NCBI RefSeq assembly: GCF_964355755.1
Contig: NC_092673.1
Coordinates: forward strand, 25,784,269-25,848,268
From: Antedon mediterranea
Taxonomy: Eukaryota > Animalia > Echinodermata
Length of the DNA stretch: 64,000 bases
Reading direction: 5' to 3'
Shown here: in pieces, positions 19,082 to 63,845 of the stretch
Numbering within the stretch: the stretch's first letter is position 1
Layout: each line of letters starts with the position of its first letter
Translations under genes and position numbers: made by a program
Notes under the pieces: generated by a model
Told to the model about the DNA's origin: nothing
The model's database searches: none
The model's input: the letters and a program-made list of their open reading frames with translations, nothing else

Positions 19082-20117
19082 TTTAACTATTTTAATTGTT
19101 TTTTTAAGCCTGAAAGACAATATATTTTAATTTAATTTTTTTAATGTAATATGTTTCCATGAATAGTCAAATTAATTCTTAAATACGAAAAAACACAATT
19201 AATAACTGAAAAAAATGGTATTAACACGCTTGATAAAAATTAATGTAGATGGAGTTTAACGAATTACTACAAATAGAAATGTGTTAATTTATCCCGGACC
19301 CCCCCCCCCCCTCACTCTATTCGAGAAGAGGGAGGGACATATTCAAAGCGGGTAAATACGGCGTTTGACTTCGCGGGATATTGACTTCGCGGTAATTGAC
19401 GACCTCATCAATAATTTTTATTATATATTCATTATGTCCTTTGATTTCCTTTTGTGCTTCTACAGTACACACATTTCTTAATTGAAGAAAATATATAAAA
19501 TAATACCTAATGGCCCATCGACAGTTTATTTATAATTATCTTTGAAATAGTTTTAATGATGTTTTGTTTGTCAAAGAGCTTAACGTTGGAAAATATATGT
19601 AATGCATAATGGTGTTTTACCAAACCGATTGAGTGTGAATGCTACGAGGTTTTACGTATCGAAACAATTTCTTTACAAAAACCATGGATGCAATGTGTTT
19701 ATGAATATTTCACAATCATAACTGAGATGACAGATGAGAAAAACATACACAGGCTATTCTACATGACCACGTGTCTGGGTTTTCAATCAATCATCTATGA
19801 GAGTGATCCGGGGGTACGGTATCACCAACCTCACCCTAAATTTCACTCAAACTCCATCTATGTGTCCTTCTCATAGGTGCTCAGCAAAAACGTGGTGTTG
19901 ATAACTGCAGTTAGGCATTCTTGTTTTCGACGTACTTCTCGGAATAACCAAACAAATAGCCTAGCACACAACCAAAATGTTTCATTTTCTTATTCATTTT
20001 ATTGTTAAAATATATTTTTTTCATCTAAATTTTCTTATCAAAATAGCAAATATAATATATGAACTCATCATGAGCAAGATACAAAAAATTAAGTTACGCA
20101 TACGTTCCTGACTATAA

Positions 20118-23005: not shown

Positions 23006-24828
23006 TTCAAATTATAATTTGACAATTTTGTTTAGAATCATAAACTGCTAAAGATTACCAGTTTATTTTGATTTTACAATTGATTGACAAATTGATTCAT
23101 GTTCGTTTAAAATTATTATCAAATCGCCGCATATTTTCATAGCTTTAGGCCTAGGGTCAACTCATTTGTTAGTTAACCTGATGATCCGACCCACTTAATA
23201 AAATTCTGATTTTCTCCTCACACAACATAATAAACAAAACCAATCCAACAATCCATCACGACAGAAAGCACATTCATCTAACACGAATGAAATAAATTCA
23301 AAACATTTATGAAACCTTAAGTTTTACTAATAAATCAACAAAACAATTAGTGTAACTATTGAGAAGTATATCAGTAAAAATAAATAATTGTATCCACTCA
23401 CCGTAAGATGTATAAGAAGCCATCGCCAATATATTCAAAACAAATTATAACAAAGTATAAATCTAATATCTTTAATCCAAATTGAAGTTATATTTCTTGA
23501 TAAGTAGTTCTTCAGTGTCTCAATGAGAGCGTTTAGTTGAAAATATCAAACTTTGCCACATTTATAGACATGGGAGGATGGCCGCCGGAAGTATAGTATT
23601 TTATTAATTGCAAAAACTGGGACAGCCTCTTACTAAAGATTATGCGCAGTATGCCTGTATATTTGACTTTTAACTTGAATCTATAAATAACTTTATTGTT
23701 TATCCAAGAATTTTTTTTCCGCCGGAAAAATACACTAGTTGCTATTTACGTAAGTTGATAATTATTAATAACGTACTATCATTTTTTTTTCTACAGGATC
23801 TGAGACAGAAATAAGGTGGGTGTTCTCTTTATATCTTGAAGGCAACGTATTTTTTTAATTTGATTTTACCAACCCACAGTAGTCTGATATGGATACTGAT
23901 ATTTATTAAAAATAACCTATTACTCTAGTAACCTTTTTTTTTTATTGGTAAAACGGTTCTGAGTGGCAGTTAGGTCACCCAACATTTTGAAAGATATTGC
24001 AATTTCTTTTTCTTTTTTTATATTGATATTCAATACCTAAATGCTAATTATTATTCTAATAAAATTTAATTTTAACTCCATTCAACCTATAGCTTTTAAA
24101 ACGTTGCACACATTTTGAGTGGGTTTTTTTTTAATGACTAACGAATAATAAATCAATGCAACCTCCTCCCACAAAAAACAGAAGGTATACTATTGACTGT
24201 TACATCAATGTGATAAAGGTGCGGTGTTGCATATTTTTTGTTTTTGTTTTATTACACTTTATTTATAGAGGGTAACCCTAAACAGCGTATGCTGACAATC
24301 AAGGGACCCTCTTGAGAGATTGGCTGTGTGTATACTAGTACACCGAGGTAACCCCCTACTCGTCTCGAAAGATGTAGGCCTACTAGGTTCTTTAAAGTGC
24401 ACATGAGCCAGATGTGTACACTGGACCTAAGGTTTATTGTACTTATCCGAGAAGACTCGTTCTACCACCAGACCCATGGAGTTTAGGCTCGAACCCTTGC
24501 CAATGTTAATATGGCAAGGTATTACGGTTCCACTGTCTTAACCGCTTATATGATTTGTTATGTCTTGATTGTTGGTGGACGCCTGTGAATGTTTAGTGGT
24601 AATCTTTGCTAATTGTTACATGAAGGATGGGGAAATGTTTATATTCTACAGGGAAACCATTAGCATTGCTCTTAATGTGAAAATGTGACTAATAAAACAT
24701 CTCGAATAAGCTGGCCTGGCATTATTAAAAAAACTCAATCAGCTCCAGAAGCATTTAGACCATCATTCTTTATTATCAATAATGACGTGCAAAACCAGTA
24801 TAGTTTGTTACAATTCACATTATTTATT

Positions 24829-24975
24829 AAGCTATGTCTACACTCTCAAACTAGTTGTGATGTGCCCAAATATGGTAGAGATGTTTCCAAGTATGATAGT
24901 GATATTACATCATCATGTCCATGGGGACATCACATTTTTTGTGTCAAATAAAGTTTGATAAAGTGTAGACAGAGC
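24829..24975. mobile_element. Family-A MITE copy (diverged).
   Basis: agctatgtctacactctcaaac ... tttgataaagtgtagacagagc. Confidence 0.7.
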
Positions 24976-30400: not shown

Positions 30401-33400
30401 TCTACTGGATGCATCTTACTGGTCATTATACACTAAATTTTGTTTAAATGTATTTTTTTTATAAAGGTCAAAGGTGTTTTTGAAAGAGTGAACATTAACC
30501 ATCTTAATAGCCACCGTTAAGACATTTGGGCGACTGTTTTAAAAGAAATTTAAAACAAGTACTGTAGATGCAGGATATCAATTGTATAACTTATCCCACA
30601 CCTTTTAAACTCAAATTTGTAAATTTATAATCTGTTTATACCACGCCTAGAGTTGGGTAACCAAGTGGTTAGGACACTTGACTGTCGTACAGAAAGACCC
30701 AGTTTACTCGGCTGTAAATGAGTACCTGGTTGAAAAGTAATAGAGAAGGACAAAAAGGTGGTGTGTAATGGAACTTAGCACCCTACCACATAATTCCAAG
30801 GCTTAATAAAAATAATAATAATAGTGATAAATACTTTATTTTAACACGGAAATGTTTGTCACCACTAAGGTGTTCTTCTACAAGGCTGTGATCAACTTAT
30901 ACATTACTAATTAAACATTTTTTTTTTTTAAAGAGATAAAAATATATAAACAAAAACTTTACTTTTTACATTTAGGGTTCAAAATAAAATTCTAATTTGT
31001 GGCGTTTTAAATTGGTTTTTCTAGAGTACATTCCATAATCTAGCACCAAGATATGAAAAACTTTTACAATGACCTCCTAAACAGCTCATTTCTATACTAG
31101 AATCTGAACAGGAACTTTTCAATGCAAGGTTCTTTTTATTTTTTGACTTTGTATTCTAATTTACTGTGATTTTTAAATTTAATGTAAACGTGACAATCAT
31201 ACAGTATGACAGTATCTGATCTGGGGGGAGTTTTGGGGGGGTTTTGAAGTAAATTTTTCTCAGAAAACTACTATTTTAAGGAATTTTAAACATGAAATAA
31301 TCGTTGAAAAATGATCACATTGTGATGCTATATGATTGTCAACAATACAATAGAACGGATATAATAAACCAAATCTTTCTATTGTAAAGTAAGAATTTAG
31401 GTAACATTTCATAGAGGATATCCTTCATACATATTTTAAATACCTGAATACTCTACAATATTTAGGCCTACCTTTATTCCTGTAGGATTAAGGATAAAAC
31501 TTTCTTTGTTATACAAGAAATTGACAAAGACATCTAAACTCTTATCACCAAAACTGTAAGTTCAAATGAGGGTGTACTGTATATTATATAGCCACAACAA
31601 ATAAAGGACAGTAGTATTAATTAAAAACAAATGAAGTATTCTATGGGCATTCAGACTTTTGCATACAATTGAAATGGAAAATCCCTATTTAACTAAATAT
31701 TATATTATGAAAATACAATTCAAGTTCTAATGTGGGTGTATTTACCCACAACAAATAATAGGGATAGTAGTACAGTAGTATTCAAATTTAAACACAAATG
31801 AAAGTATGGCATTCCTATGTAATTATACAATTAAAATGGAAAATCCCTATTAAATAACTTAGCTAACAAACTGACAGTTACACATGTGTTGTGGTTGTGA
31901 AAATATTTTTTTTGTTAAACAGGAAGATCTTGGAATTGTTCAAAGTACAATTTACTTTGTTTTATTTATGCATAAAACAAATTAATACTACAGTACACTA
32001 TTTTATCAATGAAACTTGCGTATTTAAAAAAAAATTTACTACAGTACACAGTAAAAGGTAAAGGATACAAACAATTTTGACCTGCTATTAAAGAATAGTA
32101 AGTAGAAATATGCGCCACCTAGCCCTTTAGCCTGCCGTTGCCTGTTAAAGAGCATATACAGTACAAGACTGCAACCTCTTCATGTACTGTAAGTGTCTTT
32201 GTGGCACGGCTCCACATTATCTTAACAAACTTATTAAACCATATGTCCCACTATGCAGAGGTCTTCAATCTAAACGGATCCTTTTACAGCACATAGAACC
32301 AACCTTAAATCCGTGCCTAAGGGCTTCTTTGCACAGGCACCAGAGATCTGGGACCAACTTCCTCCCCTTTTCTAATCAAATCTTTCCTAAAAACTCACCT
32401 ATTTCAATAGTTATTCTTTTCATATTGTGCTGTGAGACTCCTCCGGTAAAGAGCGCTTTATAAATATTTGATATTATCATTATTATTAATCATGACTTAA
32501 TGTAGTCCACTCAGTATCCCCCAAACACGACTTAAATACCTTTATTATTATTATACTTTCTTAGTATACCCTGTATTTTGCAAGATATTTCTATCCAATG
32601 TGTTGAAATAAAGAGATTTAAGACAAATAGAAACTTACAGTATAATAGTACATTGTTTTTCATTATACAGAAGTACTGTATTAATTGTTTTATAATTAAA
32701 TAATAAATTATAATAATAAAGATTATTAATATTATTCCAGTAGTCTAGTAAATCTGAAACAAATAAATAATAAATAATAAATGCAATGTTTACTATAATC
32801 CCTGGTTCAACAACCTCTCATTTATGGGAGTCTTCACAATTTAATGATCGAAACAAATAATACCATATTAGGCATCATACCAAAAAGAGAAATAAACTTT
32901 AGTTTCATTTTCATAATATTATTCTTAAATTTATTGGAATTGTACCATGATCTTTTTATACAAAATCATGATAAAATATTGTTTTTCTTCTTTTTTTTTA
33001 TTGAAAATATTATTAGCATGATTACAGCTGTTTTGTGAGTTCTATCATCCATCCTTTTGCACTGAAAGTTGCTCTCCAATTTACACTACAGTTAACAAGT
33101 TCCTGGTCTTTTAGGAATTCATACCATTATTTATCAAAGATTCTGCAGTAAGTTTTTCTCTAAAACACATCTCTAAATCAGTCACTCCACATTGATTAAA
33201 AGTATAATACTACACTATTTATTAATTTAATATTTTTATCATGAAATTAAAAAAAAATAAAAATTGTAAATAGTGCTTTTCATAATTACCAAATTTTTAT
33301 ATTTTTCATTGAGTCATAGTGGCCTAGGTTGCTTTTGTTTTTCCTGATTTTTGGGGGGTTTTTTTGGTCAAATAAATTAATGAAATTAAAATTAATTGTT

Positions 33401-35041: not shown

Positions 35042-35183
35042 TAAGCTATATCTACACTATCAAACTAGTTTGACAAACAAAGTGTAATGTTCCCAAATAT
35101 GGTAGTGATATGACATCATGTCCATATATGGAAACATCACATTTTTTTGTCACATAAAGTTTGATAGTGTAGACAGAGCTTTA
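35042..35183. mobile_element. Family-A MITE copy nested inside a SINE2 copy.
   Basis: It interrupts the SINE2 sequence gcttgtatcctta|..|gacaagatactttac. The uninterrupted SINE2 at 52540-52560 shows the same empty site. Confidence 0.75.
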
Positions 35184-36857: not shown

Positions 36858-39800
36858 GTAAGTGTGATCTTGTGCATTTGATCATATATTAAACTATTTT
36901 AATTTCACGACATGCCACTAGACTACCACATTTAGTAGTAATCAATCACAGTCCTACCATATAAGTGGTAATCCCCCACACACATATATTTCTGAGAATT
37001 ATGTTTTGATGCAATAGCTACAGTATAGCCTTGTAGTTATTCTTGACATTCGAAAATTGTTACTGTAGCATTAGGTAGACTTGTAATGGAATAAAGTAAA
37101 GTAAACAATATCAATTTGTACCGTAAATTTTAAAATGTATTAAATTATTCTGAGCGGCCAAACCTAATTTAATTTTAACTACTGCTGCTTTTTCAATTAT
37201 CTAAATTTGCAGAAATATCATACCCTGAAATAGTATAGCAATTTTTTGTTAGTACCCATGAGAGTACTTATGTACTTAAAATGGTTTGTTGAGCTTAAGA
37301 TTTATACCATAAAAAACTAAATATTGATCTTATTTTAGGTGAATTCTAACTCGGTCAAGCTCTTTCTACACTATCAAACTAGTTTTTAAAAAGAAGTGTG
37401 ATGTGCCCAAATATGGTAGTGATGTGCCCAAATATGTATACCTTTATAATAAAAAAACAGCATTTAAAACATAAGAATAAGTAACAAATATACGTTTTAT
37501 TTTTAATGGGATCATTTCAATTAGGCCTGGATTGAAACAAAAAAAAAATGATTTCTAGTTAATCTTATAAAGTAACATATATGTGTTCATAAACTAATAT
37601 TCATTACTTAAATTACTATTAAAAACAATTTTTTTTTTATATAATAATAAATATAACATATATCCGGTAGTAAATAGTTAATTATCAGTCTATTAGTATT
37701 TTAGGAAAAGCTATAAATACGCATTTTTACAAGCTTATAGATATTGAACAAATATAATAAGTGTTTGTTTATGAGTCTATTATTTGTATTAAAATTCCCT
37801 AATTTTTCAGGAAAAGTACACATACACACTTACTGTTTGTGTGTAGGATGTTAATGATTATTCTGTTTAAACTCTGGATAATATTTTGTTATAGTATAAA
37901 TGTACACATCTATTCTGTTTGTTTGGAAGTATATTGTAGTATTGGTGGATGTTAGGAAGTTTAAATTTAATTTAGTATACTGGCAGGGCAGATCAAGGAT
38001 TTTCTTTTAATATGAAAAGCTAAGATAATAGATATAAAAAAAAGTAGTGCATAATGTCATTTTAGCTGTCAAAGGGGTATGCGCATGACACAAACGCTAC
38101 CCCTTTGCAGGGGTTATTCACCAACCTTCAGTTTGGGATGGTAAATGAAGGTAGGTTGTAACAGGTTTGGAAATGTCTCCTTCGTCTACAGTTCCAAAAC
38201 GAAACAGTATGTCATACTTTGCATTGTGATAAGGTGAAAAAGTTAAAGAAAAGAAAATAAACTGTAAATGTATGCAAAAAAAAGATACAATAGAAATTAC
38301 CAAATGTGTCAATCCTCCATACTGTGACAGTTTATTGAAATTGGAACAAAATCAGGGACAAATTTGAAGAAAAGAAAACTTTCAGTTGATTAAATCCAGT
38401 GACTCATTCATATCTATAAATGTATTTAACTATACAACAGGAACAATATAAGTGTGTCAAGCCTGTATTTCGATTGTTTGCAGGTTTTTAGGAAGTGTGT
38501 GTAGGTAAAAGGAAAACATAATATAAATATTTTGATTAAGCACTGTTCTGTCAGACGCAGTTAGTCAATTAGATTCTTGGAATACGATTAGGTGTAAGGG
38601 ACTATTGGTATACTCCTACGCCAGTCATTGAACCCATTGTATTTTGTATATTAAGAAAATAGAATATAAGCTTCATGTGGAAAAAACTTATTCAATTACT
38701 AATTTAACCTTTAAAATTAGTGTGAATAATAGTAAATACCTGTACTATCACTCTATCATGACACTTCCGGGCTGGGTGGTATCAGGTCCACCCCCTTGAT
38801 CAATGGACCAGATGCCTGCATGAGTTGACCTTGTTATTTATTATGACAATGCAATATTACTATTTAATGAAATGGGTAAATAAAAAAAAAGAATTGGTAT
38901 ATTGGCATATACTGTAGGTACTGCTGATAAAGTATCATATTTGAGTGACCTCTGTATTAACAACTATAATATGTTGATTCCTATTAAAAGTTATGAAATA
39001 TGTTTTACCAGGAAGAGTTAAATTTATTTCACTCTTCACTGGTTTTACATCCCATACATTGCATTTGTTACTGCTGGAAAAGTTCTGGAAATTGACTACA
39101 AAGGCATTATAAGTTATATCAATTTGTGTTTTTACAATATAGTAAAACCCGTCCTTTGGAACACCCCTATGCAAGAGACACCACAAAAGGAACAATTTCC
39201 CATGAGGAGCAAAATACTTTTTAATTTAGAGGACACTACACTCTATAAAGAAATATTTGGGTCCTGAGGGTATCCCCATAATAGTTGTTCTAATGTACAT
39301 TACCACAGTAACCATTCCTAACTCAATCCTATAGTTTGCCCTGATGGGATCAAATATATCTGAATCCAACCAATCTAGATGCTGTTCCTCTTCATATGTT
39401 TGAGTATGGTAGCCAGAATTTAGATTGTACGAAGATAATGTTTCTTTGAAATGTTTACACTGGTAAATTACTTTATGTTTGATCAAGGATATAGACAAAT
39501 ACTATTCATTAATTCACAAGTACAGTAGTTAACCAGTAAAATCCCTATGTTATGAATGATATTTCTGTAGCGCTTTAAAAGGGAACTTATTTTAGAACAC
39601 TCTTTCTGCTTTACCACCCATGACGAATAAAGTGGAGTTTATAGTTATTATCAATTGTGTAGCAAAGCTTTATATTTATATTTTATAATAAGCAAGAACC
39701 TTTTAATACCTAGAGTCACCCTTTAATAAATGTACATTTTAGACATACCCTTCTTTTTGGGCATCTCTACTCAAGGAACATTCCTAGTAAGGTCGTTAAT

Positions 39801-44049: not shown

Positions 44050-44290
44050 TGCACAGTGGCTGTGTTTGTGTGGACTAGTACACCGGGGTAACCCCCTACT
44101 CGTCTCGAAAGATGTACTAGGTTCTTTAAAGTGCGCATGAGCTATGTGTACACTGGACCTACGGTTTATAGTCCTTATCCGAGAAGACTCGTTCTACCAC
44201 CAGAACCATGGAGCGAGTGAGCCTCGAACCCTTGCCGATGATATGGCTACGTAATTACGGTTCCACTGTCTTAACCGCTCGGCCACTCAC
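44050..44290 (-). mobile_element. Family-1 tRNA-derived SINE, the best-preserved copy.
   Basis: ...accagaaccatggagcgagtgagcctcgaacccttgccgatg...ggttccactgtcttaaccgctcggccactcactcgct. Confidence 0.75.
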
Positions 44291-46962: not shown

Positions 46963-47771
46963 CTTGTTGGAACTGAAATAATAAAAATAAATCAAAAATT
47001 CAAGATATAAATTTGCATATTTCGGCAGAGCATAGCACCCTCAATTTGACGATTTTAGCAAAATGAAAAGAAATATGGTGCTTTTAGTGTAGGAAGGGGG
47101 AGAGAACGAAAGTGATAATTTAAATAATTTTGTTTGGATTATTAATTATGAAAAAGCTTATTTTCTCCACAAAATTCTTATGAAATGTGTTTTTTTAAAG
47201 AATAGTGGTAACAAATTATAATAAGTTGGAATAATTTGCCGGCATTCCAGTAATAATTTATACGCAAAATTTATTTTTTAAAAAAAACACTATAGAAGCC
47301 AAAGTTCAGAATGATTTGAATGGCAAATCACCTAATTTTTAACTAACTATAGAGGGGGTTGTACAGTACTGTAAGGAAAATATTTTAAACCAATCATTTT
47401 TCCTATACTTGTTATACCCAGTTCAATTGAATTGGAATATTTTATTTAAACTTGGTAACCTCTCCCGTCTCCAAGAGGGCCCAGTTATGATCAGTGGATG
47501 TGATATACTAGTACACTGGATACAACCTCTCATCTCAAAAGATGTACTAGGTTCTTTAGATTGCACAAAGAGCTAGATGTGTAGTATAACACTGGACCTA
47601 CAGTTTATAGTCCTTATCCAAAAAGACTCATTCTACCACCAGAACCATGGAGCGAGTGAGTCTTGTATCATTGCCGATATTACGGCCACTCACTCACTCT
47701 AACGAATGAAATTTGTTATACCTGTTAGTACTGGGAATACACAAGCTTAAAGAAATTAATGAATAAAGTAC

Positions 47772-52640: not shown

Positions 52641-52784
52641 ACACTTTCCTGTGAAACTAATTAGAAGCAATATATGTTTCAACTTTATGGCAATCATTTG
52701 TGTCCTGAAGGCGTCCCCTAAAAGGGGGTTCTACTGCACAACAAACATAGCAGGTTACCAGTTCCATATACAGTAGGTACGTAC

Positions 52785-52851
52785 ATTCTTTTCTTGTCAA
52801 CCACTTTCTTGACACGTAAAGCTCTCTGTTCACTGTATAGCTTACAAACAC
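52785..52851 (-). CDS. STX18: STX18 exon (G)[21 protein letters not shown].
   Basis: Acceptor tttacag|gtg and donor aat|gtacgt (phase 2 out). Matches human [21 protein letters not shown] almost exactly. Confidence 0.8.
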
Positions 52852-53543
52852 CTGTAAATAATATGTAAAATTTCCTCAATAAAATAATTTAATTTCCAGA
52901 AAAAAATTGTTTAGTTGAATCTCCCTGCACATAGACCTCTCATAAATAGACACCACACACGCAATGGACACACATCGATAAGTATGTATGTTCTTCATAT
53001 ATACTGCAAATATTATTCTCCCTATCCGACTGAACAATCCTAAAAATGTTTATATATTTTTAGTGTTAAAATGTCCAAATGTGACCTCCATCCACACTCA
53101 TGTTTCTCTGAATCAAATTTATAATTAATCTATGTTTTATTAGAATGTACTGTATTATTTGATGTGTGTGGAAAATTTAATCAAATAAACAAAAAAACAT
53201 CTACAATTTACCAATACAAAATCTTTAATACAAAATTGTGAATAATTTATAATGAACTAATAAATTACAAGGAAAAAAGAGTTTCCACGAAGTATAATAA
53301 TAATTGTTATACAGTGCCTAATACATATTTTTCTAGGCGCTTTACACACAAAAAAAGAAAAAAAAAATATCCAAAAATAACGAAAGCATATTGAAGGTGA
53401 TGCAGGAAAAGATTTTTACCGCACTTTTCTGCAACGAAAACTCGTTAAAACATGATTCACAGGAACCGAAGTTTGTCAAACTTGCTGTATGTGGACATTT
53501 TTTCGTGACCCCTTATGGGAGTCTGTGTAATAGATGTACGAAC

Positions 53544-53621
53544 CTTTTAAGTAATTGTCTAATAGTTCAAACGTAGCTTCTCTGTGTTTTTGTACCTCTT
53601 CTGTTGCCTCCTGCTTCATTG
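53544..53621 (-). CDS. STX18: STX18 exon (A)MKQEATEEVQKHREATFELLDNYLK.
   Basis: Acceptor ttaatag|caatg and donor aaag|gttcgt. Aligns to human AHKEIHSQQVKEHRTAVLDFIEDYLKR. The frame matches ORF 53476..53703(-). Confidence 0.75.
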
Positions 53622-53959
53622 CTATTAACAACAAACAATAAAATACTGTAACTTTCATTGAAAAAAAATGTAAAGAGTTAAGTTTTAACTGAGCTTGAAT
53701 CATTTTTAGGAGAGCTTTCGATTTACAATGACAAACAACTTTGAAACAAGAAAGGTCATGTCAACTCATAGTGTACATGCAGGGAATTTGGGTAGTGCTT
53801 ACTCCCTCTATTTCTTTCCAAAGTTTATTAATATTTATTGTGTAATTTATTATTAAATATTAAGTGGCATTCTCTCAGATAAAATTATTTTCAAGGATAA
53901 ATTTTTAATGGTCAATGCATCTACATGCTTTTATATTGCATCTCTCTGTCTCTCTTTAC

Positions 53960-54065
53960 CCTCTTGTTTAAATGATCTGATTGCATCTAAGCACGTTCTC
54001 ATAAATACTTGAGCGTCTGCATCTATCTGGTCCCGATCAGCTTCCGTCATTGAATTTGAATCGGA
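53960..54065 (-). CDS. STX18: STX18 exon SDSNSMTEADRDQIDADAQVFMRTCLDAIRSFKQE.
   Basis: Acceptor atttaaag|tcc and donor gag g|gtaaag. Aligns to human [30 protein letters not shown]. Confidence 0.8.
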
Positions 54066-54184
54066 CTTTAAATGACTACAAATTAAACAAATTCTATTTA
54101 AAAAGTATTTTTTATTGTATATAATTTCATAACATAAAAATAAAATAATGTTGTGATGATTTTAATGAATTTTTTTAAACAAAC

Positions 54185-54256
54185 TCGCCTTGATGGGTTG
54201 ATATAATCTTTTCTATGTTTTTGAAGAAAATCTTTCAGTTTAGTTATTGCCACCAC
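54185..54256 (-). CDS. STX18: STX18 exon VVAITKLKDFLQKHRKDYINPSRR.
   Basis: Acceptor aaatag|gtggtg and donor cga|gtttgt. Aligns to human ISHIGKLRDFLLEHRKDYINAY. Confidence 0.75.
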
Positions 54257-54902
54257 CTATTTGAAAAAGAAAATTAAAATAATACATACTGTAATTATAC
54301 TAATACAAAAATAAAATTACCTGAAAACAAACAAATATTTGTGAGAGAAGAGCCTCTTTACTTACTTGATGATCAGCTTGTGTGACCCATTGCGTGTCAT
54401 ATACAATACAAGTTGTCTTTTCTGCTGGCTAACGTTTGAGGGACCCAATAAAAAATTGTGTTTGTAAATATTTTGGTTGTAATTATAAATGTGTAAAGAC
54501 AAATTTGAAAAGAATGTTGGTCCAAAAAAGAATAATTAAGGTTGACATATTGACCACCTCAAATGGGAAATTTCAGTAATGTTTTGAAAATAAATATTTT
54601 CAACAAAACGAAGATAACACCGCACAGCCTGTGGTGCGAAATAGCAGTATTACTATTAAAATACTTAAAATATTATATTATTGAATGAAGCAGACCTATT
54701 TATTTATAAATGTATTTACAAATAATCATTGCAAAGCCGATCTCCTATCTATGGCAAACTTCCCTGCGGTAAAACGTCACGGGCCGAAACTTCACGGGGC
54801 GAATCGACCATCTGCCGAATCTTCCACGACCGAATCCTTACGCTGCTGGGCTGTGAGATCACAATACACTACAACGCGGGGGCCTAGCAGCAGTGTACCT
54901 AC

Positions 54903-55049
54903 CATTTCTTTGGATTTGGTGGAGAATTCTGTTTTTGGACGACTGGACTTTAAAATTGAACTTTTTAAATTGTCTTGACCAGTTCCTAGAGCTTTATTTC
55001 TTGTTCGAACAGTTTTAACTGAAGCTTTGAAAAGTGCTGTTATGTCCAT
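54903..55049 (-). CDS. STX18: STX18 exon 1 with the start codon (MDITALFKASVKTVRTRNKALGTGQDNLKSSILKSSRPKTEFSTKSKEM).
   Basis: ORF 54792..55049(-). Donor atg|gtaggt. Aligns to human [24 protein letters not shown]...SPRPKGDFSSRARE. Confidence 0.8.
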
Positions 55050-55340
55050 CTTGCGTTTCGCTGGTTTTGATGATGTGGGAAATCTGGAAATTTAGTCTGC
55101 GCTGCCCAGTTGTGTGACCTTTTGCGTTTAAAACATGGCCATTATGACGGGAATTGTAACGCGATTAAATAACGTTTACCTACGTTTTGTCTAAGATTAA
55201 ACGCGTTTTGTTAAACTGTTAACTCATGAAATCACTGCTTGTCGCTGGAACTCAGAAAAAAGAAAGAAGGAAAAAGGGAAGGAAAGGAGTTGTCAGATTG
55301 ATCAATTTTAGCCTCGTATTAAACGTTTTTATTATTAATT
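55050..55340. promoter_or_regulatory. Putative bidirectional promoter, about 290 bp, shared by the divergent STX18 (-) and VPS51 (+) genes. It is locally CpG-containing and relatively GC-enriched.
   Basis: The STX18 ATG at 55049 (minus) and the VPS51 ATG at 55341 (plus) are head-to-head. CpG dinucleotides (gcgtttcgctgg, aacgcgatt, aacgcgtttt) are concentrated in this interval, unlike the flanking AT-rich DNA. Confidence 0.55.
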
Positions 55341-55353
55341 ATGGCTACTTCAG
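55341..55353 (+). CDS. VPS51: VPS51 exon 1 (MATS + 1 nt).
   Basis: ATG followed by the donor tcag|gtaaac. Joining to exon 2 gives MATSGGDKIDEAGEE.... The exon is short, so the start assignment carries only moderate confidence. Confidence 0.5.
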
Positions 55354-55848
55354 GTAAACTACAATTTAATGATAGTCCGTTTTAATAGTTTATATCGCAT
55401 TTTATTAAAATATAGTTAGCTAAAATTACCAAAATTAGGATTAATAATAGCAAGGCAGGGCTAGGCCTGCCTTCCCTGTTTGTTTTTTGGTTGTGTACTC
55501 GGTTTTTCAATGGGTAAAGGGGAGTGTGCCGCCCTTTTTAGGTGCCTCTTTTTCTTAGGCATAGGTATACATGGGCGGCGGGCTAGGCCTAGGTAGGTGT
55601 TAATAACATTTTACTTTCTAGCCTTTATTTGCATTATGTTTTTTAAAAGGCCTTTCTTATTATTTGTATTTTAGTAGGAAAGAGTGTAATTTCACACTTT
55701 TTTATAAAATAAATAATTCTGTTAGTGTTAATAAAAACATATTAAATTGAGCCTACTGTATCCATAATTTAAAATTGCAATAGAGGTTAGATAGTAATAG
55801 AATAGACCCTTTCTTTTAATTAAATAAATATATTGTTTTGTGATTCAG

Positions 55849-56070
55849 GAGGCGACAAGATAGATGAAGCGGGAGAAGAAATCCGCAGACGACGAAAGCA
55901 TGGGATGTTGAAGCTGTACTATGGAATGGAGGAATCAAATAAGGACAACCAAGATTCAAATCCAATTGATATTAATGGTGCTCAGTTTAATCCACAGGTG
56001 TATCTGTCACGACTGATGAAAGAAAAGCGCTTAAATGAGTTGATAGACAGAGAAAGCGATATGGTTAAAC
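55849..56070 (+). CDS. VPS51: VPS51 exon 2 (GGDKIDEAGEEIRRRRKHGMLKLYYGMEESNKDNQDSNPIDINGAQFNPQVYLSRLMKEKRLNELIDRESDMVK).
   Basis: Acceptor tgattcag|ga and donor aaac|gtatga. Aligns to human RRRKAHGMLKLYYG...DLNGAHFDPEVYLDKL...DSETDMVRQ. Confidence 0.8.
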
Positions 56071-56204
56071 GTATGACATATTTTTTTTATTTGATTGCCA
56101 AATATGCACTTTATCTTTTTCCCCATACAGTATATGGCAATCCTTTTGGCTGGGAGAATTTTTCAGTCAATTTTCTTTCTCCATCTTTCTAAAGATTTGT
56201 AACA

Positions 56205-56330
56205 CCCATGTCCATGGACATGATGATGTCCCCATGGACATGATGATGTCATATCACTATCATATTTGGGCATATCACTATCACATTTTTTTGTCACATA
56301 AAGTTTGATAGTGTAGACAGATTGTAAAAT
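56205..56330. mobile_element. Family-A MITE, 5'-truncated, in VPS51 intron 2.
   Basis: The 3' TIR is ttgtcacataaagtttgatagtgtagacag, and the internal gacatgatgatgtc repeats are present. Confidence 0.7.
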
Positions 56331-57396
56331 TGTATTGATTTTTTTTAAACATTTAATTTAACAGATAAGTACTTTAAACTGGTCACACCATGTCAGTGTG
56401 GAGTTGTGGCTTGGTGGTTATGATGCTTGACTACCAATCCAAGGGTTCAAGTCCTGTCATATGTCAGGACTCCAAAGACTTGTAATAAGTCTTTGTTTAT
56501 GTAGAGCATCTTGTGTATGTTTGTCTTGTGAACAGGATTGCCACCTTTAAGAAGGATAGTGAATGAATTCACTTGTGGTTATCCAAGGGCAATTTGCCAA
56601 AAATGGAAATAAATAAGAAAACAGAATGAACTAGAAAGCCACTCCGAGAGGGCATACCTCCGCCTACTGTAAAATTCTCCTACATAAGATTTCTCCGGTA
56701 AAAAAAAATATATATATATATTTGTGTGTGTCTTATAATGCTCTTTGTGATTTAGGCTAATTTCATTACAAGCATGTGTATGCGAGTTTGGTGTAATGGT
56801 TATGTAACAAGCCTTTCAATTAACAATAGCTTCAGTTGACTAACAATAGAACAGCAACGCGAAAATCAAACGAGTGAATTTGAAAAGAAATAGGTTTTTT
56901 AAACTACTCGCATCAAAAAACGTGCACATTAAATCAAATTATGTTTTAAAATTACAAATCAAAAATTATAACTCTTGCCTCTTGTTCAAACATGAAGTTT
57001 TTTGGACAAGTAGTTCTCGAGAAAATGCAATTTCAGTTTACTTGTTACTTTAAGACTGCTCGCCGGCTTTTGAAAAATTCTGTCCTATCTTTTAACACTA
57101 GCAGGTCTAAAAAAGTATACTAAAAAGTGGTCCAGAATTGGGACTGTGGTTCCAAATGGTCCCAAAATTTAATGGAATGGTCCTTGACCACATATCTATC
57201 TGTCTATTCATTTTGGTAAAGATCTTGTAATTACTTTTTGAGTAATCCTGCTAACAAACAAACAAACAAACACACGCTACCGATTACATATACCTCCTTG
57301 GCGGAGGTAAACAATTACAATTACAGCCAATGACCAGATAATAAGAATGCGACCACCACTTTACAATATTTTTTTTAATATGATTTTATTTTTCAG

Positions 57397-57482
57397 AAAT
57401 TTGTTCTCTAGATAGTGACATGCAAACCCTTGTTTATGAAAATTATAATAAATTTATTAGTGCTACGGATACTATTAGAAAA
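57397..57482 (+). CDS. VPS51: VPS51 exon 3 ([29 protein letters not shown]).
   Basis: Acceptor tttcag|aa and donor aaa|gtaagt. Near-identical to human [28 protein letters not shown]. Confidence 0.9.
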
Positions 57483-58215
57483 GTAAGTGACAAAATAAAT
57501 TATATATTTTGAAATGTAATTTCACTATAAATATCCTAATGATCATGTCCATTTGTATAGCGGAATCATTGTTACACTTTTCAACTACATGCAGCTTCTT
57601 CCCTGGATGTCAGTGCTGCCAATTGCTCTCATGTCTGTGAGTGAATTAGTGCACAACTCCTACCCATCTTGAAAGATTTACTAGGTTCTTTGAAGTGCAC
57701 ACAATTAAAAAAAGTGCCTATGGTTTTTACTCCTGTTTGGATGGATAAGACTATTTACCACCAGAAAAAATCTCGGATAGACTAACTAATTTTTCACTAA
57801 CCCATAGGTCCAGTGTACACATCTGACTCATGTGCACTTTAAAGAACCTAGTACATCTTTGGAGACAATTAGGGTAACCCCGGTGTACTAGTATACACAC
57901 AGCCACTGTCACCCACAGACAATTGTCATAACTCATTAAGAGGGCTCCTTGATTGTCTGCATACGTTGTTAAGGGACCCCCCTATAAATAAGGTGAAATA
58001 AAAATAAACAAAATAAAATCTATTTCTTCAACATTCAATTATTTCGGTATTATTCATTATTACATAATACTTGTACAAGACTGAACTAAAAGTTTAAAGT
58101 ACAAAACATTGCCTGATATATAATTTTTACCTGAATCTTCCAAACATCTCACTTTGGAGTCATGGTTTTCCTTGGCAATTTTTCTAAATAATATCAACAC
58201 AATACAATATTACAG

Positions 58216-58371
58216 ATGAAGAATGATTTCAAGAAAATGGAGGATGAGATGGATAGGTTAGCTACAAACATGGACGCCATTACAGAATTCAGTGCAGGAA
58301 TAAGCAACACATTGCAGGAAAGAAGGCAGCAAATATCAACTCTTAGTGGTGTCCATTCACTACTTAAAAAG
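58216..58371 (+). CDS. VPS51: VPS51 exon 4 ([52 protein letters not shown]).
   Basis: ORF 58216..58404. Acceptor tacag|atg and donor aag|gtgttt. Aligns to human [52 protein letters not shown]. Confidence 0.9.
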
Positions 58372-58453
58372 GTGTTTTTTTATTCTATTTTTTTAAATTT
58401 TTAAATATACATCTACCGTTTCTTGTTTCCACAATTCTAGTACAGTATTATGT

Positions 58454-58617
58454 AAAGCTCTGTCTACACTATCAAACTTTATGTGACAAAAAAGTGTGAT
58501 GTGCCCACATATGGTAGTGATATGCCCAACAATGGTAATGATATGACATCATCATGTCCATATATGGGCACATCACATAATTTTGTCACATAAAGTTTGA
58601 TAGTGTAGACAGAGCTT
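58454..58617. mobile_element. Family-A MITE in VPS51 intron 4. This is a clean copy with a TA target-site duplication.
   Basis: atgTA|AAGCTCTGTCTACAC ... GTGTAGACAGAGCTT|TAcatg. Confidence 0.85.
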
Positions 58618-58930
58618 TACATGTGTTTATTGAAATGGTCTCTGATAACCTTGTTTCTTTTAAAATCAAGATCATGCATTCCATTGTTCAAAATAATGCA
58701 TAACTAATTTGTCTGTCATGCTGATGTATTTGTTTTGTTTCTACTGTATATTATATATTTTATTGTATGTTTTAGTTAGTGGCAGTTTTTATCGCAGTTG
58801 TTTTCAATTGGCTATTGGTTTGTGCTTCAATTTTGTATTGTAATGTTGAAATGAAGACTAGGGGAAAAAAAATGATAAACAAATATACTGTAGCATGTGG
58901 ATGTTTAACAATAGTTGTTTTTATTTACAG

Positions 58931-59004
58931 TTACAATTTCTATTTGAGCTTCCTGCAAGGTTAAAGAAGTGTATTGAAATGAAAGCTTATGGACAAGCTG
59001 TCAG
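58931..59004 (+). CDS. VPS51: VPS51 exon 5 ([24 protein letters not shown]).
   Basis: Acceptor tttacag|tta and donor cag|gtatat. Aligns to human [25 protein letters not shown]. Confidence 0.85.
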
Positions 59005-59117
59005 GTATATAATAGTTAATTAACACTCTCTGTCATAATTGGGACAAGGGCCACAATTCTTATAGGGTCTGGTAGAGTCATTAGCCCAGACATAGTATGA
59101 TCAATGATAAAAGTCTT

Positions 59118-59180
59118 AAGCTCTGTCTACACTTTCAAACTTTATGTGACAAAAAATGCCCATATATGGACAGAGCTTTA
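59118..59180. mobile_element. Internally deleted family-A MITE (about 62 bp) in VPS51 intron 5.
   Basis: aagctctgtctacactttcaaactttatgtgacaaaaaatgcccatatatggacagagcttta. Confidence 0.65.
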
Positions 59181-59405
59181 TGTTAAAATTCTGATTCTAA
59201 GATGTAATGTTTTCGGCTACGATATGATAAATCAGTGAACTGGTGCGCTACTCTTTCCACGATAAAGATGCACTGTCTTTTAAATGCACTTGTGTACACT
59301 GAGTCTTGAGGTATACTGTATGTCCTAGAAGACTACCGCCAGAACTAGGACCCAGAGAGTCTTGTACTATTTAAGGATCAAGAATTTGTGTTTATTCTTT
59401 CACAG

Positions 59406-59538
59406 GTATTATGCTAAGACCAGAACCGTTCTGAACCAGTATCAACATATGCCATCCTTTCATGGTATACAACAAGATTGTAGTGACATTGTTACTGAAT
59501 TAAGATCAAAGCTAAGGGAACAATTTAGAGACAAAGAG
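59406..59538 (+). CDS. VPS51: VPS51 exon 6 (RYYAKTRTVLNQYQHMPSFHGIQQDCSDIVTELRSKLREQFRDKE).
   Basis: Acceptor tcacag|g and donor gag|gtgagg. Aligns to human [42 protein letters not shown]. Confidence 0.85.
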
Positions 59539-59639
59539 GTGAGGGAAGCTGCGCATAATAATGTATGCAGTATAATTATGATTATCATGTCCTTTTTAGC
59601 AAAACAATTAGTTACTTGCATTTTATTTTGTTATGATAG

Positions 59640-59728
59640 TCCACACCAAAACAGCTTGCAGAGTGCGTGGATCTTCTGTTGCAACTCAAGGAACCAGCTG
59701 ATGAACTCTGTGACGAGTTCCTGGCACG
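59640..59728 (+). CDS. VPS51: VPS51 exon 7 (STPKQLAECVDLLLQLKEPADELCDEFLAR).
   Basis: Acceptor gatag|tcc and donor cacg|gtgagt. Aligns to human [28 protein letters not shown]. Confidence 0.85.
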
Positions 59729-59746
59729 GTGAGTATAGTCCTGAAG

Positions 59747-59907
59747 CCTTGTCTACACTATCAAACTTTATGTGACAAAAAAAATATGATGTGCCCATAT
59801 ATGGACATGATGATGTCATATCACTACCATATTTAGGAATATCACTACTATATTTGGGCACATCACACTTTTTTTGTCGAACTAGTTTGATAGTGTAGAC
59901 CGAGCTT
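59747..59907. mobile_element. Family-A MITE beginning 18 bp downstream of the VPS51 exon-7 splice donor.
   Basis: ...cacg|gtgagtatagtcctgaAGCCTTGTCTACACTATCAAAC ... GTGTAGACCGAGCTTaca. Confidence 0.8.
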
Positions 59908-60273
59908 ACATATTCTTGTGTTGCAGTAAAATTATACACAAACACAAAGTAAATCCAGTAGAAATTGGTTTAAGGTAAAAATTTGATTTATTTTTTTATC
60001 CTGGGTGACCTCTTTAGTACTATACTCCTCTTCCAGTGGGCCAATAATCAGAACACCAGGAGATTATCCCCTTCTCTTTTTAATTGTTTTCTTTGTTATG
60101 AAAATCAGCTTTATGTCCTATCTGAAGGATAGGGGTTCAAATCCCTTATGAGTCTTTTTTCTCACACTGCAGTTTCATGAGATTCATGAATATCATTGAG
60201 CACATACAGACACCGCTGATAATGTGCTACGAAAGTCTGAAAGATAATGGTAAATTTTATTTATTCCGTGTAG

Positions 60274-60430
60274 TGCCCAGGAGAAACTTGATGAAGATTT
60301 GTCTGAGATGTCAGATCAGGTAGACCCTGCGAAAGCCATTGAAGTGTCTACCCCTATAAAGGAAATGGTAGAGTCCACAGACAAGAAAGAGGAAAGGCCT
60401 TCAGAGAAGTATATGAGAAATATGCCAATG
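60274..60430 (+). CDS. VPS51: VPS51 exon 8 (AQEKLDEDLSEMSDQVDPAKAIEVSTPIKEMVESTDKKEERPSEKYMRNMPM). The region is poorly conserved and acidic.
   Basis: Acceptor ccgtgtag|t and donor atg|gttcgt. The frame continues the R codon from exon 7. It is the only open frame between stop codons that connects to exon 9. Confidence 0.6.
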
Positions 60431-60528
60431 GTTCGTATTAATTGTTGTATATGAATTGCAATAGAAATAGAAATTATTAATTGTAAAATGCATTATTTTC
60501 TTTGTTATTTTTCTTTTTTTTTATGTAG

Positions 60529-60635
60529 GATATTTTGGAATTTATTCACAAAGGTTGCACCAATTTCCTTGGTAATATTTGTCTTGTGATTGCATCTTAC
60601 AAAGAACTGTTTGTCAACAGACAAACACATTCAGA
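60529..60635 (+). CDS. VPS51: VPS51 exon 9 (DILEFIHKGCTNFLGNICLVIASYKELFVNRQTHS).
   Basis: Acceptor ttatgtag|gat and donor ga|gtaagt. Aligns to human [28 protein letters not shown]. Confidence 0.8.
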
Positions 60636-61229
60636 GTAAGTTCTTTATTAATCATGTTTTTGTCAGTCAAGCCTAACTTTTTTCATGCATTCGCAGCCAC
60701 AAATCACTATGCCAGCGATCAACAAAAACAAACAAACCCAAAATTGTATACTAAACTATCGTAAGTAAAATGTACACATTTTTACCAAGAAATTATTCAG
60801 AAATCATGGCCATCTTCGACTAGACTGTCATGGTAGGAATTTAAGAAATAAAAAAAAAATTAACCAACTAGTCAATATACCATTTTTCATTAAATTCTCA
60901 AAATTTACTCCATTTTTACCTTCCCTGCTGACTTGCGACGGCTCTTGTGTGTGTTTTTATCTTTTATTAGATTTAAATATTTTTAATTCTGCCTTAATTC
61001 TTACACATTTTTATGGAACATTTTTGACATGTTATTGTTTGTTATGTTATAAATTTGGCCATTTGGCTATGAGATGTAAAGTTAGTCAATATTTTTGTAT
61101 TTTTTGGAAATAGAGAGAATGTATATATATATCTGCTCCCCATAAAATCTAATCTATATATCCTAGTTTACTCCCTAGCCTTCATCTTGTTATCTCCGGT
61201 TTCTATTAAATATCAACATTTCTTATTAG

Positions 61230-61341
61230 TCCCCAGGAGCAGGACCAACTAAAGGAGGTTGCCCACGCAAAGTTAGCAGAGTTTGTCAAGTCAAGGATGG
61301 AGCAATATTTCTCATGTGTGGAACAAAGAATTCAAGCTGAG
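61230..61341 (+). CDS. VPS51: VPS51 exon 10 (DPQEQDQLKEVAHAKLAEFVKSRMEQYFSCVEQRIQAE).
   Basis: Acceptor cttattag|t and donor gag|gtattg. Aligns to human [25 protein letters not shown]. Confidence 0.75.
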
Positions 61342-61929
61342 GTATTGTTTACAACCAGACATAAATAAATTATTAATTAGTAAATAATAATAATATTCTG
61401 GATTTATAAAGCACCTAATGTTGTGAAACCTCTAAGTGCTGTACATTATTATTACCATGGTAATTTTTGGATCAAACACGTATGGAAACATACTTCCATA
61501 ATGCAGCTAGTAATCAGCGCAAAGTTTAAAGATACATGTATATTTGTAAGTCATTAACTGTCCAAAGTGACATTTTGGTTCGCACATATTTGGGAGGTTT
61601 GCAACCTTATGAATACGAAAACATACATTCATCTTTTATTTTCATAGAAATAGTCGTATTCAAAGCAAATATACTTTTTTGGTCTATTTTTTTGCATTGA
61701 ATTAAGATTGTATATAATTATAGTATAAACAGAGACAATTTATGAAAATGAATTTACTCAAAATATTTGACAAAATTAGGATAAATAGCAGTTTTTGCGC
61801 TAGGCCTGGGCAGCCCAGTCACCTGCTGTTGGCTCAAAATCTTCTATATTCTTTTCTAAATATGAAACAGTTTTTTACATTTTATAAGTCTTAATTTAAA
61901 TTCATTTTCTTACCTTTTTCAACATTTAG

Positions 61930-62250
61930 AAGGAATCTGTAGAGAACTCAATGCTTGTTAGAGCTCTGGACAGATTCCATCGCCGCCTCCAAGCTGTCGA
62001 TGATCTACTTCCAAAACTCAATATCATCGCTCGAGGAACAGAAATTGTTGCCAATGCTGCCCGAGAGAGGTCGCTGTTTTATTTAGAAGGATTGAAAAAT
62101 CACTTTATCGAATGCACTACGGATGTGCGACAGAAGTTGTGTACGCCACATCTCATTGGAAAACAAGAAACATCAAATCTGATGGATATGCTGTCAATGA
62201 TGTCATCATCAATTGTGGAACAAATGAAAATTGTTCTTGCTAATCTGCAG
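61930..62250 (+). CDS. VPS51: VPS51 exon 11 (KESVENSMLVRALDRFHRRLQAVDDLLPKLNIIARGTEIVANAARERSLFYLEGLKNHFIECTTDVRQKL...ANLQ).
   Basis: ORF 61951..62295. Acceptor catttag|aag and donor cag|gtaagg. Aligns to human SLLVRALDRFHRRL...[35 protein letters not shown]. Confidence 0.9.
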
Positions 62251-62267
62251 GTAAGGCTGCTGTCAGT

Positions 62268-62378
62268 TAGCTCTGTCTACACTACTACAAACTAGTTTGA
62301 CAAAAAAAAGTGTAATGTGCCCACATCATGGTAGTGATATGACATCATCATGTCCATATATGTTTGATAGTGTAGACT
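62268..62378. mobile_element. Family-A MITE beginning 17 bp downstream of the VPS51 exon-11 splice donor.
   Basis: ...cag|gtaaggctgctgtcagttAGCTCTGTCTACACTAC ... TTTGATAGTGTAGACtg. Confidence 0.75.
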
Positions 62379-62497
62379 GTTTCTGTGACTGTATACACCA
62401 TTGGCACTTTGGGAAACAACTGTAACATTTTCCTATCCCTATAAAAGAGAGATTATCCCTCCTTCATCTCTTCTGTCATTGTCATCTTAAGATCTGT

Positions 62498-62590
62498 CTA
62501 CACTATCAAACTTTATGTGATGTGCCCATATATGGACATGATGATGTCATACCACTACCATATTTGGGCATATCACCACCATATGTGTAT
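62498..62590. mobile_element. Partial family-A MITE in VPS51 intron 11.
   Basis: agatctgtctacactatcaaactttatgtgatgtgcccatatatggacatgatgatgtcat... Confidence 0.6.
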
Positions 62591-62725
62591 CTTCTTTTCT
62601 CCAATATCTCGTCACAAAATTGAACTTTTCTTTGCTCGGACACTAATTGTTTTCAATCCTTACTCTGTTCTAGATTCTGTAATTCTTTTTTTTTAAAATA
62701 AATGACATGCACATTTGTGTTATAG

Positions 62726-62848
62726 GGTTTTACCTCTGCTGACCTGACGTTTGCCAACACAGCTTATTTCCAAGGCACTTTCTGTGTTCATGATGTGCGT
62801 GAAGTGGTGGTAGTAGGATTCCTTGAGTATCTGTTTAAAGCATCATGT
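62726..62848 (+). CDS. VPS51: VPS51 exon 12 (GFTSADLTFANTAYFQGTFCVHDVREVVVVGFLEYLFKASC).
   Basis: Acceptor gttatag|ggt and donor tgt|gtaagt. Aligns to human [36 protein letters not shown]. Confidence 0.8.
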
Positions 62849-63482
62849 GTAAGTTAACAATATCAGAGATGTCTATTTTCCAATAACTATATATTTATTA
62901 TTATTTTATTAACAATTTTTGAATATGACATTATTTATTAACTTGAATAAAATTGGAATAAAATAACAAAATTATTTGTTCTTTTTTTTTCTGCCTGAAC
63001 TTTATTAAAACTATAAAATTACCTATTCAGTTTAAATTTATTAATCTGTATTTTTCATGTTTTGAGGGACAATGTTATATATATCAACATTAAGACATCA
63101 TCATCAATTTTGTTGTGTTTTTTTGTAAAGGTAAATGTATATTGTTCCTTAGTTAAAATTGTGACTGATTAATTTTGGATTAAATCCTATACTGCAGACC
63201 CATGTACAGTATGATGATCAGCTCATACAGTAGTAGTAGTACTATTCTCTGCTGTTTTCATATTCTGTATCCTGCATTATATGTGCATTTACATAATAAC
63301 ATTCCATCCTGAAGGACTCAAACAAAAGCACAAGTCTCGAACATGTGACTTAATTCCTTACCATTGTGCAACCTTTAAGAAGGATAGTGAATGATTTCGC
63401 TTATGGTTATCCTTGGCAATTTGCCTAAATATTTCATTTTATACTCTTTTTACTAATCTTAACATACTTTTTGTTTTTTTAG

Positions 63483-63587
63483 GATCTCTGTGAGCGTAGT
63501 GGTGAGAAAGGATCAGCCCCTGCAGCTATTATTCTACTGCTCTCTAGACTTCACATGGACTTTAGTAACTCAACAATAAACCAAATT
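63483..63587 (+). CDS. VPS51: VPS51 exon 13 (DLCERSGEKGSAPAAIILLLSRLHMDFSNSTINQI).
   Basis: Acceptor ttttttag|gat and donor att|gtaagt. Aligns to human [33 protein letters not shown]. Confidence 0.8.
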
Positions 63588-63704
63588 GTAAGTCTTTAAT
63601 AGCTATTTAATCGTCTTTATTCACCTAGAGAAAAATTTGAGAATTCAGAATTTATATAACGATGATTTTAAATAGTAAACATTAATTTCTATTGTTATTT
63701 CAAG

Positions 63705-63845
63705 GTTACAACAGCTGATAAGCAGTTTTCACTTGACCCACGTTGTAAGGTGACCCCTGCTGCCGACCTTTCAACCAAAGCTAAGAAGACGGCTCAGAAG
63801 CTTCTCAACCAATATGTACAAATACAGGGCTTACAAATCTCTCAG
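63705..63845 (+). CDS. VPS51: VPS51 exon 14 (VTTADKQFSLDPRCKVTPAADLSTKAKKTAQKLLNQYVQIQGLQISQ). The gene continues beyond the window end.
   Basis: Acceptor tttcaag|gtt and donor cag|gtaaat. Aligns to human [45 protein letters not shown]. Confidence 0.8.

Follow-up and report, generated by a model that had tools for sequence, protein, structure and literature searches.

Introduction

Transposable elements are under-represented near exons in mammals, and for DNA transposons in human and mouse the depleted zone measures 50–100 bp (PMC3088655). When a mammalian element is situated within 20 bp of an exon, it is mostly found at the splice donor; among full-length AluY elements at this distance, 10% are near acceptors. 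Near-exon elements that have become fixed in human and mouse are presumed to be harmless (PMC3088655). In plants, MITEs (miniature inverted-repeat transposable elements) occur frequently in introns, where they at times change splicing or give rise to small RNAs (PMC12595863). Here, we analyzed a stretch of 64,000 nucleotides (nt) from the echinoderm Antedon mediterranea (assembly GCF_964355755.1, contig NC_092673.1, positions 25,784,269 to 25,848,268), which will be referred to as the window, in which copies of a palindromic MITE occupy several introns of the VPS51 gene and two of them begin 15–17 nt after the splice donors of exons 7 and 11. Like the insertions that define the mammalian "underrepresentation zones" (Zhang, Romanish and Mager 2011, PMC3088655), these two copies are situated less than 20 bp from an exon and on its donor side; the differences are that the host belongs to another phylum and has far shorter introns, that the element is of another class, and that a single gene is seen here. 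In our judgement, the VPS51 copies are probably near-neutral, old insertions into short and ancient introns with strong donors, where they have survived on the donor side, which is the tolerant one.

The membrane-tethering complexes GARP/EARP contain VPS51 as a core subunit encoded by a single-copy gene, and strong effects on it would for this reason probably have been selected against.

VPS51 Gene Model and Age of Introns 7 and 11

The window is AT-rich, with ~32% G+C throughout. VPS51 is located on the + strand at 55.3–64.0 kb; its coding exons 1 to 14 occupy 55341..63845 (Table 1), and the gene continues beyond the window end. Homology-guided mapping joined the 14 exons into a single uninterrupted frame of 613 amino acids, with GT-AG boundaries at all 13 complete introns. 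Using the 306-amino-acid stretch encoded by exons 6 to 11 as query, 126 proteins were retrieved, and every one that carried a name from its source was VPS51. The top homologue, from Saccoglossus kowalevskii, showed 61% identity over 65% of the query, and no near-identical match was present. The alignment with homologues is gapless across both the exon 7/8 and the exon 11/12 junction, which fixes the donors of exons 7 and 11 by homology. An earlier interpretation made from the letters of the DNA (the sequence-only reading) had numbered the exons and introns of VPS51 correctly, the donor G being at 59729 for exon 7 and at 62251 for exon 11. The introns of the gene are short here (about 100–1300 nt), and an insertion into one of them therefore comes to lie near a splice site.

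The VPS51 protein was mapped onto the VPS51 loci of a mollusc (a limpet) and an annelid (a tubeworm). The exon 7/8 boundary was found at the identical residue in Patella vulgata and Lamellibrachia satsuma, and the exon 11/12 boundary (following ...VLANLQ) was identical in L. satsuma. As the positions of introns 7 and 11 are thus common to mollusc and/or annelid, the introns predate the MITE insertions. Two further differences in exon structure were observed. The sequence which forms exon 11 in the window (321 nt) is divided into three exons in both Patella (locus L121, 10307–11801) and Lamellibrachia (locus L122, 5046–6792), so that the window lineage is without two introns of these species. 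Patella, in turn, is without the window's intron 2, home of the MITE copy at 56214.

Structure and Copies of the MITE

A BLAST search with the copy at 58450–58622 as query detected 16 copies or fragments of the element, which together make up 3.1% of the window (2.0 kb). Matches to its 16-nt terminal motif, GTCTACACTATCAAAC, numbered 23 at no more than three mismatches in the 64 kb, compared to 0.95 expected. The element is an imperfect palindrome over its whole length of ~165 bp, containing variable numbers of a 21-bp internal unit, and full-length copies span 155–176 bp. The terminal inverted repeat comprises 23 nt, AAGCTCTGTCTACACTATCAAAC, with the complement at the opposite end, and alignment of nine copies together with their flanks yielded the consensus TA-AAGCTCTGTCTACACTATCAAACT...AGTTTGATAGTGTAGACAGAGCTT-TA. 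Most intact copies are flanked by TA at left and right (10761, 24829, 35043, and 58455), and the copy at 59744 shows TG at its left (59742–59743) and a degraded TA at its right. Apart from the read-through of VPS51 exons, no open reading frame (ORF) of at least 110 amino acids overlaps a copy. The element is thus short and non-coding, bounded by terminal inverted repeats and a TA target-site duplication, and dispersed in many copies, in agreement with its earlier identification as a MITE. The copies differ from one another by roughly 10–25% in pairwise comparison, and they are consequently not recent insertions.

VPS51 contains six of the copies, two of them in intron 11. These include the additional ones which the sequence-only reading had listed in introns 2, 4, 5, and 11, all of which were recovered by BLAST. 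The copy in intron 4 has 72-nt arms that are 90% complementary, and the intron-7 copy matches it in reverse orientation with 87.6% identity. For the two copies next to donors, distances of 18 and 17 nt had been proposed. The second is exact, whereas the intron-7 copy starts at 59744 (AAGCC...) rather than at 59747, leaving 15 nt of intron before it. Similarly, the description of the copies as palindromes of ~160 bp applies to the full-length ones (58455–58617 and 59744–59907) and does not extend to the donor-proximal copy in intron 11, which measures ~110 bp. In the latter, part of one arm is missing through an internal deletion, and the right tip is short of its final ~8 nt; deleted and truncated in this manner, the copy at 62268 is an old, tolerated relic. 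ORFs reading from exons 6–7 (59362–59775) and from exon 11 (61951–62295) into the adjoining MITEs returned no record in exact look-ups.

A sequence resembling a 3' splice site is present at 59908–59925, right after the intron-7 MITE. It consists of CTTAC, a pyrimidine-rich run, and TTGCAG, is followed by TAA, and has no evident coding potential; the resemblance is probably due to chance. A third short repeat family of the window occurs at 56539–56604, 63367–63432, and 58162–58190, that is, in VPS51 introns 2, 12, and 3. Several repeat families are therefore present in the introns of the gene, and the MITE is not alone there.

Chance, Tolerance, and Insertion Bias

The presence of the copies is probably due to ordinary transposition followed by tolerance. 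An abundant, non-autonomous, palindromic DNA transposon that targets TA would insert by cut-and-paste, using a transposase encoded elsewhere in the genome, and insertions would have landed in VPS51 introns that already existed. The MITEs would then be transcribed within the pre-mRNA and removed together with the intron without appreciable effect on the gene; in intron 7, the self-contained hairpin would loop out of the intron. At a density of 16 copies in 64 kb, intronic copies are to be expected everywhere. Insertions close to an exon should survive mainly on the donor side, since the donor requires only approximately the first 6–8 bases of the intron, whereas the acceptor requires a branch point and a pyrimidine tract.

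To evaluate the proximity to donors, the elements were removed, giving pre-insertion introns of 5,946 nt in total, and six insertions were placed either uniformly or at TA sites only. About 3–5% of insertions into VPS51 introns are expected within 18 nt of a donor under these conditions. Given one MITE per 4 kb, the genome as a whole must contain many such cases.

Several observations weigh against a purely neutral origin of the arrangement. The probability that two or more of the six copies would be located no further than 18 nt from a donor was 0.012–0.029, and it was 0.043 when proximity to an acceptor was counted as equally noteworthy. Five of the six copies occupy the first third of the intron that contains them (P about 0.02–0.03), the relative positions in the pre-insertion introns being 0.12, 0.20, 0.33, 0.04, 0.07, and 0.90, and this bias is not explained by depletion at the acceptor end alone. 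VPS51 accounts for 13.5% of the window and received 6 of 15 independent insertions (P 0.01). Moreover, mammalian elements near exons take part in chimeric transcripts more often than others, with 11.7% versus 1.6% in the case of SINEs (short interspersed nuclear elements; PMC3088655). These hints of non-random placement lie outside what neutrality explains. However, all placement tests were made post hoc on a single gene, with both the threshold and the gene picked after the data had been seen, and we consequently regard the non-randomness as weak.

The number of 15 independent insertions follows from counting the copies at 17170 and 18906 as one, because each is carried by one unit of a tandem segmental duplication. 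The duplicated units of ~1.7–2.2 kb (15.6–17.8 versus 17.8–19.6 kb, within 15610–19617) show 93–100% identity.

A similar distribution could result if the transposase, or local hopping from a nearby donor copy, favoured VPS51 and the 5' parts of introns, be it by open chromatin, transcription-coupled access, or DNA structure at TA. The clustering of copies in VPS51 and in the first third of its introns would fit such a bias, as would the stretch from 37.4 to 56.2 kb, which is free of MITEs and includes exons that we assign to STX18 (see below). On the other hand, the tests were selected afterwards and applied to a tiny sample, the flanks of the copies display no target motif beyond TA, and the copies are diverged and of differing age, which does not fit with a single burst of local hopping. 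An insertion bias is for these reasons considered unlikely.

Predicted Folding and Strength of the Splice Donors

Both donors next to a MITE are strong. ACG/GTGAGT at exon 7 and CAG/GTAAGG at exon 11 each agree with the consensus MAG/GTRAGT in 8 of its 9 positions. Of the 14 VPS51 donors, only 4 score this high, and being near-consensus the two are expected to be robust. Strong hairpins directly beside both of them had been anticipated in the sequence-only reading. Folding of the isolated copies clearly bore this out for intron 7, where the element alone is predicted to fold with −68.5 kcal/mol (z-score −11.9), but not for intron 11, where the donor-proximal element reaches −26.6 kcal/mol (z-score −1.5, and −0.14 in context) and retains only a 15-bp interrupted terminal stem. 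The corresponding values were −109 kcal/mol and a z-score of −19.9 for the copy in intron 4, and a z-score of −2.7 for the second copy in intron 11 (62484–62587).

A hairpin adjacent to the donor might modulate splicing of introns 7 and 11, as the sequence-only reading had proposed; it could slow or alter recognition by U1/U6, with retention or exonisation as the outcome. The intron-7 copy would indeed form a very stable hairpin from position +16 onwards, and in one minimum-energy fold (241-nt context) the stem was extended such that the donor region paired with the right flank. Retention of intron 7, read from the sequence, would lead to an immediate stop (CGG TGA) and retention of intron 11 to a stop after 14 codons, and changes in splicing by MITEs have been reported in plants (review, PMC12595863). 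Donor accessibility was expressed as the ensemble free energy required for opening positions −3 to +6 in 320-nt contexts. Opening cost 3.1 kcal/mol at intron 7 and 6.8 kcal/mol at intron 11, compared to 1.2–6.3 kcal/mol at the other eleven donors. When the element was replaced by shuffled sequence, the cost was 5.1 ± 1.1 kcal/mol for intron 7 and 6.8 ± 1.0 kcal/mol for intron 11. In both contexts the donor is as accessible as with a shuffled insert or more so, and since opening becomes no more costly, the donors are not sequestered by the elements, which fold on themselves; the sequestration suggested by the single minimum-energy fold was rejected by these ensemble and shuffle controls. A scan of all GT dinucleotides against the donor consensus revealed no good cryptic donor within the two donor-proximal elements, the best one matching 5 of 9 positions. 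Considering further that the intron-11 copy is without significant structure, that both donors are strong, and that the elements are old and decayed, so that any harm has long been tolerated, an effect on splicing appears very unlikely.

Pairing between Introns and Small RNAs

The copies could also act through RNA pairing, by giving rise to a circular RNA of 296 nt or to duplexes that are edited or diced into small RNAs acting on other transcripts with such elements; a position near a donor would then be favoured, as it brings the back-splice donor beside the duplex. We rate any such action as highly improbable, and likewise the proposal that pairing of the intron-4 and intron-7 copies across exons 5 to 7, rather than the hairpin at the donor, promotes back-splicing to the 296-nt circle or feeds double-stranded RNA into editing or small-RNA pathways. 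The geometry would be suitable for such pairing: the two copies provide arms of 97 nt with 90% complementarity, the predicted duplex of −225.7 kcal/mol exceeds the summed self-folds of −177.5 kcal/mol, the intron-7 copy follows the exon-7 donor by 15 nt, and ~310 nt separate the intron-4 copy from the exon-5 acceptor downstream. Exons circularise in dependence on sequences of the two flanking introns that are complementary, with cross-intron pairing and within-intron pairing in a competition that tunes the process (Zhang et al. 2014, summarised in PMC4647462). The inverted Alu pairs at circularised exons described there resemble the VPS51 arrangement in that reverse-complementary copies flank a block of exons, with a duplex whose predicted stability exceeds that of the self-folds. 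They differ in that each MITE copy is itself palindromic, so that pairing within the element competes strongly, and the circle here is hypothetical. Each copy is transcribed as a whole before its partner and can fold as soon as it has been transcribed. Self-folding should thus win kinetically, and a real effect of cross-intron pairing is unlikely on this ground. Among 2354 circular RNAs of rice, MITEs were present on both flanks in only 72 cases (PMC4647462).

Scanning the whole window with Rfam at gathering thresholds gave no match. At relaxed thresholds, the intron-4 and intron-7 copies matched the covariance models MIR4387, MIR4371, MIR1435, and MIR1878 with E values of 1e-6 to 1e-9. Compensated base pairs make up nearly the whole of the alignments, which consequently demonstrate only the shape of a long hairpin precursor. 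Membership in these microRNA families was rejected because every score was below its threshold, with 51.5 versus 84 bits for MIR4387 and 42.4 versus 110 bits for MIR4371 (both clan CL00144). MITE-derived microRNA precursors are of similar length and form long, near-perfect hairpins, but the Rfam families in question are from plants and do not share the sequence.

That the elements created introns 7 and 11 on insertion, as introners do, is virtually excluded: although both elements abut the 5' end of their intron, the introns run 362 and 345 nt past them, the splice sites are outside the elements, and the intron positions are conserved in Patella and Lamellibrachia (intron 7) and in Lamellibrachia (intron 11). 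A MITE-like element at the start of an intron is common to introners and the present case, but here the MITE neither spans the intron nor supplies its splice sites, and the introns occupy ancient rather than lineage-specific positions. Transposon-derived introns reportedly occur in several marine eukaryotes, for example, Amoebophrya.

Family Assignment

The sequence-only reading had termed the elements Stowaway-like. The architecture and the TA duplication are consistent with this name, the latter being common to Stowaway elements, which are plant MITEs of the Tc1/mariner type, and to the family described here. The Stowaway terminal motif, CTCCCTCCGT, is however absent. The termini of the present element read AAGCTCTGTC..., its repeat AAGCTCTGTCTACACTATCAAAC is unlike that motif, and its host is an animal, whereas Stowaway belongs to plants. 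More generally, the element resembles TA-flanked MITEs of the Tc1/mariner type, known from plants and, in comparable form, from animals, in being short and AT-rich, of high copy number, palindromic and capable of forming a hairpin, and often located in or near genes. Taking the TA duplication alone as the guide to superfamily, we infer that the family is of the Tc1/mariner type. Tourist (PIF-Harbinger) was rejected, as the flanks TAA...TTA are accounted for by TA together with the element's palindromic end and contain no direct 3-bp TWA repeat. Likewise, piggyBac and Kolobok were rejected because the 4-nt flanks are unequal in every intact copy (TAAA versus TTTA) and no TTAA duplication is present.

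No transposase was found in the window, in which only four ORFs of at least 110 amino acids exist, three of them VPS51 exon read-throughs. Pfam revealed no domains in composition-filtered stop-to-stop ORFs of at least 50 amino acids between 1 and 46 kb, and a literature search by terminal-repeat sequence yielded no match. The invariant 16-mer GTTTGATAGTGTAGAC was detected at 120 or more loci of a metagenome collection, with a single match at each; as BLAST similarity was confined to the seed and did not go past it, these were rejected as chance matches.

Other Features of the Window

The − strand ORFs at 52721–55091 carry what we take to be exons of syntaxin-18 (STX18), for example, MDITALFKASVKTVRTRNKALG at 54795–55091, judged by likeness to the human protein. 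STX18 and VPS51 are arranged head-to-head with their start codons ~250–350 bp apart, which suggests that they share a bidirectional promoter. A second dispersed repeat of ~170–220 bp, unrelated to the MITE, is present at 14027–14304, 24327–24546, 44067–44279, and 47507–47678 with 82–87% identity. ORF translations at 5924–6163 (− strand) and 32149–32460 (+ strand) resemble the repeat peptide "...LRS..LL.VPR....G.RAF..AAP.LWNSLP...", which is widespread and occurs in many animal genomes, and both ORFs are probably fragments of another interspersed element.

Table 1. Coordinates of the MITE copies and of the VPS51 coding exons in the window.
Feature	Position	Strand	Distance to splice site	Remarks
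MITE, intron 2	56214–56321		143 nt from donor	truncated, right end only
MITE, intron 4	58455–58617		78–83 nt after exon-4 donor, ~310 nt before exon-5 acceptor	best preserved, TA/TA
MITE, intron 5	59118–59172		113 nt from donor	55-nt fragment, left end only
MITE, intron 7	59744–59907		15 nt of intron before it	full-length
MITE, intron 11, first	62268–62377		17 nt before TA at 62268–62269	decayed
MITE, intron 11, second	62484–62587		233 nt from donor	left terminal repeat, ~60% of element, right arm missing
MITE outside VPS51	5255–5336
MITE outside VPS51	6764–6926
MITE outside VPS51	6927–6983
MITE outside VPS51	10618–10738
MITE outside VPS51	10761–10916
MITE outside VPS51	17170–17324
MITE outside VPS51	18906–19081
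MITE outside VPS51	24829–24975
MITE outside VPS51	35043–35183
MITE outside VPS51	37354–37436
VPS51 exon 1	55341–55353	+		13 nt, ATGGCTACTTCAG
VPS51 exon 2	55849–56070	+
VPS51 exon 3	57397–57482	+
VPS51 exon 4	58216–58371	+
VPS51 exon 5	58931–59004	+
VPS51 exon 6	59406–59538	+
VPS51 exon 7	59640–59728	+		phase-2 end; donor GTGAGT from 59729
VPS51 exon 8	60274–60430	+
VPS51 exon 9	60529–60635	+
VPS51 exon 10	61230–61341	+
VPS51 exon 11	61930–62250	+		phase-0 end; donor GTAAGG from 62251
VPS51 exon 12	62726–62848	+
VPS51 exon 13	63483–63587	+
VPS51 exon 14	63705–63845	+

Conclusions

Six diverged copies of one palindromic, TA-flanked MITE family reside in introns of VPS51, and the two introns with a copy next to the donor are ancient. 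We infer that these insertions are neutral or nearly so, and a functional interpretation of the MITEs would find no support in any of the computations presented. It is a known principle that splicing or the output of circular RNA can be shaped by repeats that are close to exons or that pair across introns; should the elements influence RNA processing of VPS51, they would add a further example and no new principle. If the ordinary interpretation is true, the case matters for annotation only, in that it defines the ends of the MITE, its TA duplication, and its density in this genome, and it would mean that splice donors tolerate a hairpin of 164 nt beginning at +16. In this respect, VPS51 of A. 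mediterranea is an unremarkable instance of the picture known from mammals and plants.

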